A DNA stretch of 16,510 bases from Candidatus Wukongarchaeum yapensis (GCA_016840425.1 JAEOSI010000024.1:1-16510), one strand, 5' to 3'; counted from the first letter of the stretch, positions 4,022 through 13,473 are shown. Notes: generated from the letters alone by a model not told the origin. A program made the numbers and translations.

Positions 4022-4540
4022 TTATTTTTCTTCTAAGCTCTTTTCTAATTTTCGGATTTCTTTTTTAAGTGCTTCAATAATCTGACTATTATCAATTTGA
4101 GTCAAAGGTGCACCACAGTTTTGACATGTAAATCCAACATCAAACGCCTCATCAAAGTTCAAACGTCTACAAGATTCATTTCCACACTCAAAAAAAACAT
4201 TGTTTTCTTCAAAATTAAGACGCTGTTTGAGAACTTTAATCACAAGACGTGTTTTCCTCGAGGCAAATTCATAAATTTTATTTTTTTCTAATTGCCAATA
4301 GTATACAAACCAACCAGTTTCACTATCTCTAACTCTTCTGTACGTTGCTAATCGAGCATCATAAAGCCTATATAACACCTTACGTATTTTATTAAGATTT
4401 AACTCCGTCTTTTGAGCAAGCTCTTCATCGGTCATAGAAGATTTTTGAGCAAGTAGCTTAACCACTTTTACCCCTTCTTCCCCTGCAACCTCTCTTGCAA
4501 GCCCATCAAGCGTCTCTACAATAGAAAAGAGGCTAGTCAT
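4022..4540 (-). CDS. tfe: Transcription factor E alpha
   Basis: Winged helix (MTDEELAQKTELNLNKIRKVLYRLY, ETGWFVYYW) and Zn ribbon (C-x4-C...FTCQNCGAPL). Confidence 0.96.
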   Translation of the reverse strand: MTSLFSIVETLDGLAREVAGEEGVKVVKLLAQKSSMTDEELAQKTELNLNKIRKVLYRLYDARLATYRRVRDSETGWFVYYWQLEKNKIYEFASRKTRLVIKVLKQRLNFEENNVFFECGNESCRRLNFDEAFDVGFTCQNCGAPLTQIDNSQIIEALKKEIRKLEKSLEEK

Positions 4541-9984: not shown

Positions 9985-10734
9985 TTATTCCTTTTCTTTC
10001 TTGGGCACTAGTTCAGTTACCATGGAGATCTCTGGAGTTAGTTCTATCTCCTCTTCGCCGAGTTTTTTCCCTTTTTTCTCTAATTTGGCTTTTATTTTCT
10101 TCAATCTTGTGAATGATTGTCTTTCTTGTTCTGATAGTTGTAACTGAATATAGTTTATAGTGGTTACTAAACGAGGTATCATGATGTAATTTAAAGCGTT
10201 CACTCTGCGCCTAGTTTCACTAATTTCTCTCGCCAAGCGTATCAAGGCACCTTGAACTTCTGCAAGTTTAACTATTTGATCCATCGCCTTCCTAAATCGC
10301 TCTATTGCCTCATCTAACTTCACAGAAGTATCGACAAAACTATAAAATAACTTCTCTTCTTCTTTTTCTCCGCTTAAAAATCTTAATAATGGCACTCGTA
10401 CACCCATTATGCTCTTAGTTTGAACTGAAACCTCCGCGATATGTGGCGCAGAAAGTGCTATTTCTCGTATCTTCATTGGACCTAAGACCATCTTCGCTTC
10501 AGTTAGTGCCAGAAAAGCTTCTTGTAATCCTTCCTGAACCGATTTTCTAACCTTATCAAAATCCTCAAGAATCTCAAAAAAATGCATAATCAAAGCATCC
10601 ATTTTTTCACGGAGTAAATCATGTCCTTTTTGAGCAAGATTTCGCCTAATCTTTAAAGCAAGCAATTCCATCCTTGTTGCTTGTACTCCTTCTATTACTT
10701 CGCTACTCAAAAGTAAATCCCACCAATTATCCAC
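9985..10734 (-). CDS. atpD: A/V-type ATP synthase subunit D; real start probably TTG 10710
   Basis: ATRMELL..K......KGHDLLREKMDAL, SIMGVRVP, ETRRRVNALNYIMIP, EQERQSFTRLKKIK. An SD-like GGTGGGA precedes TTG 10710. Confidence 0.95.
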   Translation of the reverse strand: MDNWWDLLLSSEVIEGVQATRMELLALKIRRNLAQKGHDLLREKMDALIMHFFEILEDFDKVRKSVQEGLQEAFLALTEAKMVLGPMKIREIALSAPHIAEVSVQTKSIMGVRVPLLRFLSGEKEEEKLFYSFVDTSVKLDEAIERFRKAMDQIVKLAEVQGALIRLAREISETRRRVNALNYIMIPRLVTTINYIQLQLSEQERQSFTRLKKIKAKLEKKGKKLGEEEIELTPEISMVTELVPKKEKE

Positions 10735-10823
10735 CAGATCTTATCAGATTATTAAGAAATTAAACTGTTGATTTTGAAATGTTTTTTAATAAAAATTACC
10801 CTTTATAAAATTGTTTCACGTTA

Positions 10824-10833: not shown

Positions 10834-10867
10834 CGTTTTGTCATTATTATCTTATATGAAGCTAGGC

Positions 10868-10881
10868 GCGGGGGTGGCCGA
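10868..10881 (+). repeat. Left copy of a 14-bp direct repeat gcgggggtggccga (= tRNA-Leu nt 1-14)
   Basis: Exact match to 13116-13129 with no extension on either side; a GC-rich island in an AT-rich context. Confidence 0.93.
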
Positions 10882-11176
10882 TTTTTCTTTGAGTTGTTTT
10901 CTATTGTGTTTTTGTTGTTTTTCTTCTTTTTCCGCTGTGTTTTTTCGTTTTTCTGCTTTGAAAACGGGTTTTTGATTTTGATACCTTTCTTATAATGCGT
11001 TTATTTTTGTTTTTATTTTTTAGGAGTGTTTTCGTTTTACATGATTTTTTAATGGTTTGTGGATTTCTCTTATTTCGTGTTTTTTTGATTTTTTCCTCGT
11101 TTTTTGCTCTTTTTTGATCTCTTTTTTTCTTGTTTTATGCTTGGAAAACAGGTTGTTTTTCGTTTTTCATTTTTTT
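10882..11176 (+). other. Low-complexity, strand-biased T-rich tract (~60% T on the + strand)
   Basis: Counted 35/60 T in 10921-10980 and 36/60 T in 10981-11040, with many T4-T7 runs. Starts at the first base after the left direct repeat. Confidence 0.85.
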
Positions 11177-11210
11177 AAAGCCTAATATATTCACTTTTAC
11201 CCCCTCTCCA

Positions 11211-11261
11211 TAAAGTTTATATATGGCATATAGTATATGTATGATCTATCTTTAATGGGGT
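11211..11261 (+). promoter_or_regulatory. Promoter and SD of the TnpB-like gene
   Basis: TATA tttatata at 11216-11223 preceded by purine-rich taaag; SD ggggt at 11257-11261, 7 nt before ATG 11269. Confidence 0.55.
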
Positions 11262-11268
11262 AAAAATT

Positions 11269-13116
11269 ATGCGAAGAACGGTAACAGAATTAGTGTGTTT
11301 AACCTTTCAAAGCAAACTTTTGGAGGTAGCAGAAAAAGAAAGAGTTAAGATTGATGATCTTATGAGACGTTTTCAATCCGCTAAAAGAACCGCTTTCAAA
11401 AGGCTCGTAGAAGGTTTGAAAAAGAGCAAGGAGATAGAAAAAGAGCTTGTAGAGAAATTTATTCTAAATTCTGGATTTGCAAGGTCTGCTATTTCTGATG
11501 CGAAAGCTATAATGGATAGTCAAAAGGAACTACTATCTTACTATGTTCAAAATTATGAGGGAAAGATAAGAAAGAGCAAGAAAAAGCTGGAAAAATGTCG
11601 TTCTGAACTGAAGGGGAAGGGTTTACTTTCCAGAATAATGAAGTATGAGGGGAAGAGAGATCTCCTAAAACAGCATTTAGAGAATGAGACTATTCCTAAG
11701 ATGATTTTTGGGAGGAGAAGTAATTTTGAGCTTCTTTTAAAGGGAAAGATTTCGAGGGAAGAATGGAGAGAATTGAGGATAAACCAAGTTTACAGCAAAG
11801 GCAATGCTTATCACAAAGGTAACCGAAACTTGAGGGTTACTTATGAAGAAAGTGAAAAACAGTTTTTTCTATGTATAAATTATCCTCCCAAAGAAAGGGG
11901 GAAAAGGGGTATAAAGCAGAGATACAAGCTTTTTGTTCCAGAGTTTTTTAAACCTTATATCTTATCCAGTCTTGAACTCGTGAAAAAAGTTGTTGGAAAA
12001 AAGAAAGAGATTGTTTATGCTACTAAAAAACCGCACACAGTAAGAGTGATTCGGAAGAAAGGAGGGGAGTATTATGTTTATATAACAATAGAGATTTCTT
12101 GTCCAGATGAATCCCTCTCAAATGCTAATGAAAAGGGCTTGTTGGGCTTAGATCTTAATGCTAAGGGTATAGGAGCAGTAATAGTTCTGCCCAAAGGTAA
12201 CTTAAAAGCGCACAGATGGTTTCCGTGTCACGAACTTTTATACGCAAGAAGTGAAAAACGTTCTAACTTGATAGGAAACCTCGTGGTTAAGGTTTTCAGG
12301 TGGGCTAAAAGATTCGGCGTAAATACTGTTGTTTCTGAAAGTTTTAACCCGTTTAAAAAAGACCACGATACCAATGTAAAATACAACCGTGCAACAGTCA
12401 ACTTTTGCAAAGAGAAAATGGTTAAAACCGTTAAGAGTAGAGCCGCAAAAGAGAGTTTTGTTCACATAGAAGTTTTTTCCGCCTATAGCTCTATAATAGG
12501 GGAGATAAAATATCAAAAAATGTACGGCTTGAACGGTCACGAAGCTGCTGCTTTTATTATCGGGAGAAGGGGATTAGGATACAACAAAGAAAACATCCCG
12601 AAAGAGTTTAAAAAGAGTTTAAAGCCAGAGGGGCGTCGCCGATGGAAGGATGACGCTGATCCTTTGGCGAGCATCTGCCGCCAGTGGGGCGGTCTATGGA
12701 AACAAGTTTCGAAGATAAAAAACAGTTTCTTCGAAACAACAGGGGAGATACCTTTTAACCTTCGCCGGTTCTTTAGGCATCTCCTAATTAAGAGTAGTGG
12801 CGCTAACAGCGCGCTTCAGCTCGCGCTCTCCTACATTGTGAAAAAAGGAGAGACGGAAGTAGAGGATATAACCGACCCGTCTTCGGGATTCCGATCCTAC
12901 CTCGACGACTTACTAGCCTGTTCGATTCTCGAAAACGCTGAAGAACTACGTGAGAATCGTAGCACTAGGCGCAAACAGCTACTATGCGCTGTCGTAGACT
13001 TTATAAAGAATGAAGGACTTTTTGCCTTCAAACGTCTACGATCCGAAGAAAACACCCTCAAAGGATCAAAGCCTCTAAAACGCCTCGTAGAGGCTTGTGT
13101 GGGCGTTTTTGAGTAG
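11269..13116 (+). CDS. tnpB: IS200/IS605-accessory TnpB-related RuvC protein (Cas12f/TnpB superfamily), 615 aa with a long C-terminal extension
   Basis: Family motifs DLMRRFQSAKRTAFKRL, PKMIFG, YSKG...KGNRNLR, YVYITIE; RuvC-I GLDLN; LLYARSEKR; RuvC-II VVSESF; AYSSIIG; RuvC-III HEAAAFIIGRRG. No Zn-finger cysteines between RuvC-II and RuvC-III. Confidence 0.88.
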   Translation: MRRTVTELVCLTFQSKLLEVAEKERVKIDDLMRRFQSAKRTAFKRLVEGLKKSKEIEKELVEKFILNSGFARSAISDAKAIMDSQKELLSYYVQNYEGKIRKSKKKLEKCRSELKGKGLLSRIMKYEGKRDLLKQHLENETIPKMIFGRRSNFELLLKGKISREEWRELRINQVYSKGNAYHKGNRNLRVTYEESEKQFFLCINYPPKERGKRGIKQRYKLFVPEFFKPYILSSLELVKKVVGKKKEIVYATKKPHTVRVIRKKGGEYYVYITIEISCPDESLSNANEKGLLGLDLNAKGIGAVIVLPKGNLKAHRWFPCHELLYARSEKRSNLIGNLVVKVFRWAKRFGVNTVVSESFNPFKKDHDTNVKYNRATVNFCKEKMVKTVKSRAAKESFVHIEVFSAYSSIIGEIKYQKMYGLNGHEAAAFIIGRRGLGYNKENIPKEFKKSLKPEGRRRWKDDADPLASICRQWGGLWKQVSKIKNSFFETTGEIPFNLRRFFRHLLIKSSGANSALQLALSYIVKKGETEVEDITDPSSGFRSYLDDLLACSILENAEELRENRSTRRKQLLCAVVDFIKNEGLFAFKRLRSEENTLKGSKPLKRLVEACVGVFE

Positions 13117-13139
13117 CGGGGGTGGCCGAGCCCGGTCAA
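12630..13139 (+). ncRNA. Putative omegaRNA-like scaffold (to 13115) plus tRNA-derived guide
   Basis: GC shift and a dense set of perfect stems (12923-30/12952-59, 12992-99/13034-41, 13011-16/13025-30, 13069-77/13088-96, 12808-13/12822-27), located where TnpB omegaRNAs lie. The 5' boundary is uncertain. Confidence 0.55.
13116..13129 (+). repeat. Right copy of the 14-bp direct repeat (start of the intact tRNA-Leu)
   Basis: Identical to 10868-10881. Confidence 0.93.
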
Positions 13140-13256
13140 AGGTGTTGTGGGTCAGATGCTGGCTTTAGGCGCCAGACTTAAGATCTGGTGGCGTAGACAC
13201 GCCATTAAAACGAAACGTGGCGCAAGCCTCCGCGGGTTCAAATCCCGTCCCCCGCA
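13116..13256 (+). tRNA. tRNA-Leu(TAA) with two non-canonical introns: 13140-13166 (position 21/22) and 13197-13225 (variable-arm loop); 85 nt mature, CCA not encoded
   Basis: Acceptor GCGGGGG/CCCCCGC, A73; anticodon arm CCAGA-CT-TAA-GA-TCTGG (anticodon 13179-13181); T arm GCGGG-TTCAAAT-CCCGT. Both introns fold into BHB motifs. Confidence 0.92.
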
Positions 13257-13372: not shown

Positions 13373-13473
13373 GCCCCGGTAGCTCAGCCTGGTTAGAGCG
13401 ACTCCTTGGTATTAAATAAAATATAAAATTAGCAAAAAGGAGTAGGTCGTGGGTTCGAATCCCATCCGGGGCT
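13373..13473 (+). tRNA. tRNA-Thr(GGT) with a canonical 37/38 intron (13412-13437, 26 nt)
   Basis: Acceptor GCCCCGG/CCGGGGC, U73; D arm GCTC/GAGC; anticodon stem ACTCC/GGAGT; T loop TTCGAAT; relaxed BHB (one mismatch in the central helix). Confidence 0.93.

Follow-up and report, generated by a model that had tools for sequence, protein, structure and literature searches.

TnpB, the ancestor of Cas12 and a widely used compact genome editor, is known in its natural biology mainly from IS200/IS605 elements, which insert after short motifs. Its guide RNA, the omega-RNA, shares sequence with both the 3′ end of tnpB and the element's right end, and a pseudoknot is conserved in the guide RNAs of TnpB and Cas12 (PMC10097598). 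IS605 TnpB has been assigned a homing-type role, cutting vacant sites so that the element is copied back (10.1101/2023.11.20.567912). Here we describe a TnpB-like element at the 5′ end of a tRNA gene of Candidatus Wukongarchaeum yapensis. The stretch of DNA analysed, 16,510 nucleotides (nt) of one strand (GCA_016840425.1, JAEOSI010000024.1:1-16510; hereafter the window), holds a 2234-bp insert at positions 10882-13115, between a 14-nt copy of nt 1-14 of tRNA-Leu(UAA) and the complete tRNA gene. Our preferred interpretation, to which we give a probability of roughly 55%, is that the insert is a TnpB/omega-RNA element that lacks a transposase and uses the tRNA 5′ end as its guide.

Among described systems, the IS200/IS605 elements with a TnpB of the ISDra2 type are alike in having a single RuvC nuclease of the same fold, a pseudoknotted scaffold that overlaps the tnpB 3′ end and the right end, and a guide expected from the DNA just outside that end. 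The present element differs in having no Y1 partner, no left end adjacent to a target-adjacent motif (TAM), a 10-14-bp duplication, a His at RuvC-III and no zinc finger, and it is always flanked by a tRNA 5′ end, where those elements have arbitrary sequence following a motif of 4-5 nt. No such duplication is made by IS200/IS605 and IS607 elements (PMC13565253, PMC6188088). IS607 elements, which combine the serine recombinase TnpA with TnpB, resemble it in that 41%-identical homologues outside the genus follow a MerR-resolvase TnpA, but their target specificity is minimal and they leave no duplication (PMC6188088, PMC4058570), whereas here there is a duplication and no serine recombinase was found in the two genomes of the genus. 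The RIIIr-4 clade of TnpB proteins shares the Asp-to-His replacement, the loss of the zinc finger and a long 3′ region possibly holding the guide RNA (Altae-Tran et al. 2023, PMC10691335); the paper describing that clade mentions tRNA 0 times and does not mention target duplications.

Other mobile elements are also drawn to tRNA genes. Casposons and archaeal integrative elements target them and have direct repeats of ∼14 bp (14-15 bp in casposons), but they use the 3′ part of the tRNA where the present element uses the first 10-14 nt, and neither Cas1, an integrase nor terminal inverted repeats were found here. In eukaryotes, Ty3 and TRE5 reach tRNA genes by reading the transcription machinery. 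The CRISPR-associated Tn7-like elements of type V-K leave 5-bp duplications. Together with Dada (PMC13565253), Ty3 and TRE5 share the restriction of insertion to tRNA genes or their starts and a "safe haven" logic, but their enzymes and hosts are unrelated, and the feature common to the targets here is an 8-nt DNA sequence. In the type V-K Tn7-like elements, TnpB-derived Cas12k with a dedicated tRNA-gene guide directs adjacent insertion (10.1101/2021.02.06.429022); those elements have TnsB, TnsC and TniQ and insert downstream of the guide match, whereas the present one has no transposase and abuts +1. In the literature searched we found no description of a TnpB family bound to tRNA 5′ ends, of target duplication by such a TnpB element, or of transposon right ends preceding an entire class of tRNA genes. 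Already known are the protein clade, the omega-RNA principle, homing by cutting of vacant sites and guide-directed tRNA homing by Cas12k transposons. A preliminary description of the window had recognized no described system in such an element; in the literature searched this holds for the tRNA association and the duplication, while the protein clade (RIIIr-4) and homing on vacant sites have been described.

The window is one contig (C189) of a fragmented metagenome bin of 2.16 Mb in 277 contigs (G000), which the names given to near-identical database proteins assign to Candidatus Hodarchaeota (Asgard archaea), and was compared with a genome of the same genus (G002; G000 and G002 are 92% and 87% complete) and with a separate assembly representing the third lineage sampled (L168, GCA_976602455.1). 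Contigs of G000 are cited below by number alone, coordinates are window positions, and LE and RE denote the left end and the right end (∼200 nt) of the element. The two copies of the direct repeat GCGGGGGTGGCCGA, at 10868-10881 and 13116-13129, are identical and lie 2248 nt apart, and the probability of a chance 14-mer match at two given junctions is ∼4^-14. Between its copies lie a 387-nt T-rich stretch and one long open reading frame (ORF) at 11269-13116, of 615 amino acids (aa), the G of whose TAG stop codon is G1 of the tRNA. Neither a transposase or integrase gene within the insert nor terminal inverted repeats at its ends were found, in agreement with the preliminary description. The orthologous atpD-tRNA region of G002 (94% identity) has a single tRNA-Leu(UAA) and is an empty site in which the 14-mer copy, the T-rich tract and the ORF are all absent. 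In L168 (97% identity) the insert and its 14-nt repeat are likewise present, and the junctions are covered by metagenome contigs of three studies. The structure is a real and recent insertion with target duplication. Direct reading and the empty allele of G002, which the preliminary description had proposed to look for in relatives, confirm its claim of an insert with a 14-bp duplication at the tRNA 5′ end, and two outcomes that it had named as contrary to its case did not arise: G002, which lacks the gene at this site, has neither the 14-mer copy nor the T-rich tract there, and an assembly artefact is countered by L168 and the metagenome contigs. Contigs of three DNA runs contained neither a joint that skips the element (empty allele) nor an RE-to-LE joint (circle). 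The features of the locus are as follows.

10868-10881, plus strand: left copy of tRNA-Leu nt 1-14, target-site duplication or remnant; perfect repeat, absent from the empty allele of G002.
10882-11268, plus strand: T-rich LE module, starting TTTTTCTTTG; TTTATATA at 11220-11227 is the likely promoter of tnpB, and GGGGT its ribosome-binding site.
11269-12620, plus strand: core of the TnpB-like gene, aa 1 to ∼450, of RIIIr-4 type, with D295, E357, H424 and E441 and no zinc finger.
12621-13115, plus strand: GC-richer 3′ part of the ORF, an RE RNA-like module of which the last 200 nt (12916-13115) are conserved in all copies.
12968-12990, plus strand: hairpin H2 (12968-12973 with 12985-12990), whose loop hexamer GCTACT at 12978-12983 pairs with 13112-13117.
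12991-13042, plus strand: long stem H3 (12991-13002 with 13031-13042) around hairpin H4 (13013-13016 with 13025-13028).
13073-13080, plus strand: TATA-like box CTCTAAAA, candidate promoter, 36-43 nt upstream of tRNA +1.
13112-13117, plus strand: 3′ strand of the pseudoknot, comprising the last 4 nt of the element (AGTA) and tRNA nt 1-2 (GC).
13116-13256, plus strand: tRNA-Leu(UAA) gene with introns 13143-13169 and 13194-13222; target and presumed guide source.

The complete tRNA gene starts at the downstream copy of the 14-mer. Run on the window, ARAGORN and Rfam at its gathering score did not detect it; for ARAGORN the window tRNAs are missed because of their introns and not because they are absent, since removal of the two inserts yields an 85-nt tRNA-Leu(UAA). 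Rfam gives a weak class-II tRNA-like match over 13116-13255. The anticodon arm occurs once in G000, making this the only gene for tRNA-Leu(UAA) in the genome. A second tRNA gene, at 13373-13473, has a 28-nt anticodon-loop intron and an Rfam score of 57 bits; it starts with GCCCCGG and has no element in front of it. The 5 nt directly upstream of the left repeat (10858-10867 region) differ between filled alleles (..gaagctaggc and ..gaaactaggc) and the empty one (..gaatctaaa; L042, around 2372-2381), with 3-4 clustered changes as against two differences over the next 60 nt, and may represent either the scar of a repair event or a change that allowed escape. A perfect inverted repeat of 13 nt (10731-10743 and 13179-13191) links a place upstream of the old tRNA promoter with the tRNA anticodon arm; it is not conserved in G002 and, with ∼0.05 chance matches expected, is probably due to chance.

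Eleven places in G000 have a match to the protein or to its 3′ part. By DNA comparison, C110 holds another full copy and C89 one with an internal deletion, C77, C137, C3 and C268 carry mini-elements consisting of LE and RE, and C123, C232 and C259 have bare right ends of ∼200 nt. At 9 of 10 places in G000 the RE is followed by a variable dinucleotide and then by +1 of a different tRNA gene, and at tRNA-linked copies it always stops 0-2 nt upstream of +1. All nine of these tRNAs start with GC[CG]GGGGT, and G002 adds one starting with GCCGAGGT, giving GC[CG]G[GA]GGT as the 5′ class for both genomes; none of the 22 other tRNA genes detected by Rfam in G000 starts in this way. The ten class genes of G000 (the nine and one on C70) each have a perfect 7-bp acceptor complement behind the T arm; four reach the Rfam tRNA threshold, and the anticodon arms, read by eye, place five Leu isoacceptors, Asn and Cys among the nine. 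The remaining copy, on C77, sits at a site that is not a tRNA gene and starts with CCGAGGTAG, resembling a tRNA start; use of this site points to recognition of sequence and not of tRNA function. The tRNA link noted in the preliminary description for a single locus is thus systematic, with the RE abutting +1 of nine tRNA genes in G000 and more in G002 and metagenomes.

Most insertions of G000 are common to G002. The Asn tRNA has a bare RE in G002 and a full gene kept in G000, a difference indicating that bare right ends arise by deletion. A scan of genome contigs with a 32-nt degenerate RE pattern matched only G002 and five metagenome contigs, which contribute one additional tRNA target, and a 15-nt RE pattern run over genome contigs gave only chance matches, in unrelated bacteria. 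So far the family has been found only in one genus of Hodarchaeota (Asgard). Distant homologues (26-33% identity) in other Asgard genomes have other RE motifs and mostly unrelated flanks, and mostly have no tRNA downstream. The expectation that homologues would abut tRNA starts holds within the genus, with an upstream copy of the same start wherever an LE is present, and mostly not beyond it. Transposon-derived sequence precedes 9 of at least 32 tRNA genes found in G000 (about a quarter), and probably supplies their promoter.

Several single loci of this and related families deserve separate mention. On C70, a tRNA-Leu(CAG) gene (reverse strand, position 4479) shares its first 25 nt with the tRNA of C268 and is preceded by just the last 11 nt of the RE (TTTTTGAGCG), with native-looking AT-rich DNA upstream, an arrangement that is possibly due to gene conversion including the leader. 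The bare or reduced right ends on C232, C259 and C268 start at nearly the same point, 196-197 nt ahead of the tRNA and no more than 1-2 nt apart, beside unrelated sequence, and look as if a discrete unit of ∼200 nt had been kept or moved. In the metagenome contig L181 (Ga0209427_10152503) the 5′ part of the RE is identical to the window copy, and the terminus and tRNA are those of a C259-type locus; its loop hexamer mismatches the terminus, and the contig, either a chimeric assembly or the product of recombination between copies, was left out. Another Asgard family (L022, G095:C20; L018, G125:C194; L020, G042:C22), ∼34% identical in the RuvC part, ends in GTAAGGGYTTGAGTACYARG. At L022 this end lies directly against +1 of a tRNA-Gly(UCC) gene with an intron; behind it, at L018 and L020, come 30 nt reverse-complementary to the 5′ part of a tRNA.

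At every locus that retains an LE, the start of the tRNA behind the RE is found a second time ahead of the LE. Duplications of 10-14 nt of the tRNA start are found at six independent loci. The copy is perfect over 14 nt in the window and over 11-13 nt at G002:C1, measures 12 nt with one change at G002:C121, 10-12 nt at C3 and 11 nt with one change at C268, and reaches 9-10 nt at the non-tRNA site on C77. The orthologue of G002:C121 on C89 has a 10-nt copy, ancestrally of length 12; the changes carried by these two orthologues differ, which argues for decay after insertion. Since the copies vary among loci just as the tRNAs do, they are target-derived. The ends of the element are constant: the LE always begins with a T run and then CTTYG, the RE always ends in ..GGGCGTTTTYSAG and then two variable nucleotides, and tRNA +1 invariably marks the right junction.

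Three routes to this duplication were considered and rejected. Peel-and-paste transposition of the IS200/IS605 type after a motif presupposes a target in which the tRNA start is repeated in tandem; in the empty allele it occurs once. An element carrying its own copy of the tRNA start, taken as the main model, would need, locus by locus, a piece exactly as long as the insertion depth (10, 11, 12, 13 or 14 nt), and every right copy agrees with the tRNA to which it belongs. Staggered cutting by TnpB at the published positions does not place the joints at -1/+1 and at nt 10-14. For the duplication to arise, one strand must be joined at -1/+1 and the opposite strand at nt 10-14, the mark of a strand-transfer enzyme or of short-core recombination.

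The right end has the character of a guide RNA scaffold. We aligned 15 copies over their last 200 nt and 20 nt of flank (alignment A2; 84% mean identity), combined the long-range pairing given by RNAalifold with hairpins found by eye, and counted paired cells. In A2 93.9% of cells are paired, compared with 38-45% when partners are slid, and 11 pairs are changed on both sides, compared with 2-7 in the slid controls; the observed values were reached by none of 500 shuffles. The best-supported elements are H2, H3 with the inner H4, and the pseudoknot. Both-sided changes affect three pairs in H2 and three in the pseudoknot, and compensatory changes occur in H3/H4 at A2 columns 84/125, 88/121 and 104/113. 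In the pseudoknot, the H2 loop hexamer (12978-12983) pairs with the last 4 nt of the element and tRNA nt 1-2 (13112-13117). The dinucleotide before the tRNA (TA, CA, CG, CT or AG) is matched by the loop in nearly every copy, and on C77, where the flank is CC instead of GC, the loop has GG instead of GC. The many G-U pairs, of which one is invariant, assign the structure to the sense strand of the gene; minimum-free-energy z-scores are alike on both strands. Alternative closing stems (AAAACGC/GCGTTTT and AAAACACCC/GGGCGTTTT) are equally compatible with the data, and no Rfam family matches the right-end RNA. The covariation indicates that the right end is a structured sense-strand RNA closing on the element/tRNA boundary. 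The preliminary description had placed the tRNA in the guide position, and the location agrees with this: the structured right end stops at the tRNA start, where omega-RNAs take their guide.

Sequence searches of Pfam and the PDB with the protein gave nothing useful, including no hit to Pfam OrfB_IS605, and NCBIfam returned sub-threshold matches to the putative OrfB transposase N-terminal domain and to guided_TnpB (13.8 bits). An exhaustive profile search recovered 1172 relatives, typically of 480-520 aa, aligning to residues 10-455. An AlphaFold2 model built with 44 homologues has a predicted local distance difference test score (pLDDT) mostly above 90 for aa 10-450 and below 50 for aa 453-615, and its top Foldseek matches are Cas12f, Cas12k, Fanzor2 and ISFba1 TnpB (probability 1.0; template modelling score up to 0.53 by target). 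The model thus gives the core (aa 1-450) the Cas12f/TnpB fold (WED-REC-RuvC), bearing out the TnpB-like assignment of the preliminary description. D295, N297, H424 and R433 are invariant among the 44 homologues, and E357 (43/44) and E441 nearly so. The RuvC-I Asp (D295) and RuvC-II Glu (E357) are present as in the TnpB/Cas12 superfamily; His424 occupies the expected position of the RuvC-III Asp (H-x-AAA-x-VI-A-RRG), and the C4 zinc finger is absent, with AYTSxIG in place of TSQxCxxCG, setting the protein apart from typical ISDra2-like TnpBs. The RIIIr-4 clade has the RuvC-III Asp changed to His, lacks the C4 zinc finger, is predicted to be active and includes archaeal pairs of TnpB with ribbon-helix-helix (RHH)/MazE proteins (PMC10691335). 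Judged by these motifs, the protein fits RIIIr-4, within the IS607 lineage, and its nearest homologue outside the genus (41% identity) is encoded directly behind a MerR-resolvase (IS607-type TnpA) gene.

In four diverged full copies, substitutions at the three codon positions number 97/74/336 over aa 301-450, and the third-position excess spans aa 1-450, arguing that the core is a protein under purifying selection. Over aa 501-615 the substitutions are even (47/44/58, and 59/61/73 for aa 551-615) and non-synonymous changes prevail. Homologues elsewhere end at about aa 455-490. This pattern indicates that the last ∼125 codons evolve as non-coding sequence though the frame stays open. The 615-aa protein of the preliminary description is therefore correct as an ORF, but the conserved protein ends at about aa 450-490 and the rest overlaps the RNA-like module. 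Neither a serine recombinase (Resolvase domain) nor Cas1 (Cas_Cas1) was found in G000 or G002, and the sole Y1 transposase gene of G000 is unlinked to the element. The C110 copy (locus L002) has a 73-aa RHH-like ORF directly upstream (G000:C110:11305-11523), which is absent upstream of tnpB in the window copy and the G002 copies.

An A-rich box resembling YTYTAAAA lies at a fixed distance before +1 in all 15 copies, including two that lack the surrounding hairpin. Insertion has displaced the native tRNA-Leu promoter by 2.2 kb, behind a tract full of T runs, and because the tRNA is single-copy some promoter within the element is needed. The box is a candidate for it on sequence grounds, and a transcription start ∼13 nt before +1 would suit archaeal spacing. 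By the same kind of reasoning the T-rich left end may be a terminator array. The LE module is repeated in G000 beside remnants. A motif homologous to GCAGAAAACCAACCCT lies 75-95 nt inside the RE of this family; at L014 and L035 (G012, a complete genome), which are 32% identical, have a GC-rich 3′ region of ∼300 nt and unrelated flanks, the RE stops at GCAGAAAACCAACCCT. The present family therefore has a 75-nt 3′ extension, and it is this extension that holds the TATA-like box. The proximal LE (11072-11240) is ∼86% identical to the upstream region of a canonical TnpB family (G000:C109:1-200 and the end of C180; protein starting MKIGYQVISYKFRLYPT), showing that the ends are modular and that LE modules are exchanged between TnpB families. 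Mini-elements of this canonical C109/C180 family follow TTTAA.

Under the interpretation that we prefer, the right end would be an omega-RNA scaffold that takes its guide from the DNA just beyond the element, tRNA nt 1 to ∼16-20, and the TnpB-RNA complex would recognize the copy of the tRNA gene that has no element. Cutting or binding there would favour retention of the element and its copying into vacant or look-alike tRNA starts, with the common first 8-10 nt acting as a seed that limits which tRNA genes can be reached. The TATA-like box ∼40 nt before +1 would keep the single-copy tRNA expressed after displacement of its native promoter, and the T-rich LE would stop read-in from the old promoter; these proposed roles of RE promoter and LE terminator would explain the persistence of bare right ends before tRNA genes. 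We infer guide use, cleavage and the discrimination between empty and filled sites, and likewise the origin of the duplication.

A number of observations weigh against this interpretation. The step that makes the 10-14-nt duplication is not explained by guide reading. Published TnpB cut positions are 15-21 and 21 nt from the TAM (PMC10097598), and cuts there would not duplicate nt 1-14 and at the same time put the right junction at +1. The preliminary description had taken the insertion point to reflect the nuclease cut, a suggestion not supported, on the same grounds, the duplications measuring 10-14 nt, the right junction always falling at +1 and the published cuts lying elsewhere. Nor does comparison support its candidate TAM, TAGGC, which is not common to the other copies or the empty allele; the sequences ahead of the seven remnants and of the empty site have no motif in common, and a classical TAM is thus not evident. 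The guide would be removed by RNase P, a T4-T5 run precedes the junction by 6-10 nt, and tRNA transcription would begin downstream of the scaffold if the TATA-like box is the promoter. The class tRNA starts differ at nt 3 and from nt 9 onward; with ISDra2 TnpB, double mismatches within positions 1-12 abolish cleavage (PMC10097598), and with such intolerance guide-driven movement from one class member to another would have low efficiency. His stands in place of the RuvC-III Asp, and activity of the clade is a prediction. A correlation that agrees with the preferred interpretation, between the similarity of the right ends and that of the tRNA starts (Mantel test; r = 0.35, p = 0.03, n = 10, with C77 dropped post hoc; r = 0.29, p = 0.08 with C77 included), is a weak signal that gene conversion between similar tRNA loci could produce. 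Orthologous solo right ends are 88-94% identical, no higher than the adjacent DNA, and the sole RNA-library contig spanning an RE and a tRNA start comes from a related copy at low depth and may reflect DNA carry-over.

The geometry of the duplication implies that either an unrecognized or trans-acting recombinase makes the joints or the rearranged TnpB does so by itself. The former is a possibility that we take seriously while thinking it doubtful: a site-specific insertion sequence or integrative element would be moved by a recombinase or transposase, in trans or unrecognized, that reads the 8-10-bp GC[CG]G[GA]GGT, making staggered cuts 10-14 bp apart or using an att-like core common to the element junction and the tRNA start, with TnpB and its RNA as accessories in retention or as passengers. 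Duplications of 10-14 bp and sharp ends (a T run then CTTYG; ..YSAG plus two nucleotides) are typical of strand transfer or att recombination and not of known TnpB. The short target core (8-10 bp, with the C77 pseudo-site used on only nine matching nt), the lack of an evident TAM and the exchange of the LE module with a different TnpB family, by which the ends behave as modules, point the same way. However, Cas1 and serine recombinases were not found in the two genomes of the genus, the sole Y1 transposase has a chemistry that leaves no duplication, terminal inverted repeats are lacking, and the covarying RNA that closes on the element/tRNA boundary goes unexplained; the version in which the element carries the tRNA start, needing a piece that matches the insertion depth everywhere, is far less economical than duplication. 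The other branch, in which the RIIIr-4 TnpB and its RE RNA are themselves the insertion machinery as an RNA-guided integrase-like enzyme, we regard as unlikely. With an Asp-Glu-His active site and the zinc finger lost, such an enzyme would recognize the tRNA start through a guide seed of ∼8-12 nt and join one strand at -1/+1 and the other at nt 10-14, producing the duplication without a separate transposase; each new copy would gain the new tRNA start as its guide, and the element would walk through seed-sharing tRNA genes.

It is also improbable, in our estimation, that the family is largely domesticated, with the RE serving as promoter and leader of a tRNA class and the intact TnpBs acting as TldR-like RNA-guided regulators of tRNA genes or as toxins checked by an RHH partner (the RHH/MazE-TnpB proposal). 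The nine tRNA genes, including single-copy tRNA-Leu(UAA), would depend on sequence within the element for transcription, the TATA-like box keeps its distance in all copies, most insertions are common to both species, the RuvC-III Asp is replaced, and the full copy on C110 has the upstream RHH gene in an arrangement described for RIIIr-4 (PMC10691335). Yet the insertion in the window is missing from one of the three sampled lineages, so the family was recently mobile; mini-elements have both ends and duplications of their own, one of them at a non-tRNA site; and the window copy has no RHH gene. Conservation of D295, E357 and H424 in the homologues and the predicted activity of the clade also speak against it, and a promoter needs ∼60 nt, not a covarying structure of 200 nt. 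That the repeat and insert result from faulty assembly or chance can be practically dismissed: although the bin is fragmented and the element repetitive, with contigs often breaking within its copies, the same structure is present in an independent assembly and its junctions in contigs of three studies, five more loci are alike, each with a different tRNA start, and a relative has a clean empty site.

The locus ties a TnpB lineage to one class of essential genes, with a duplication made by no known partner transposase. If the guide reading is true, this would be a natural RNA-guided nuclease aimed at a multi-copy, sequence-related gene family, and spread by seed matches between paralogous sites would become directly testable. 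Were the joining done by the protein itself, the element would be a system for RNA-guided insertion that needs only one protein. The RIIIr-4 clade gains a concrete target that can be assayed.

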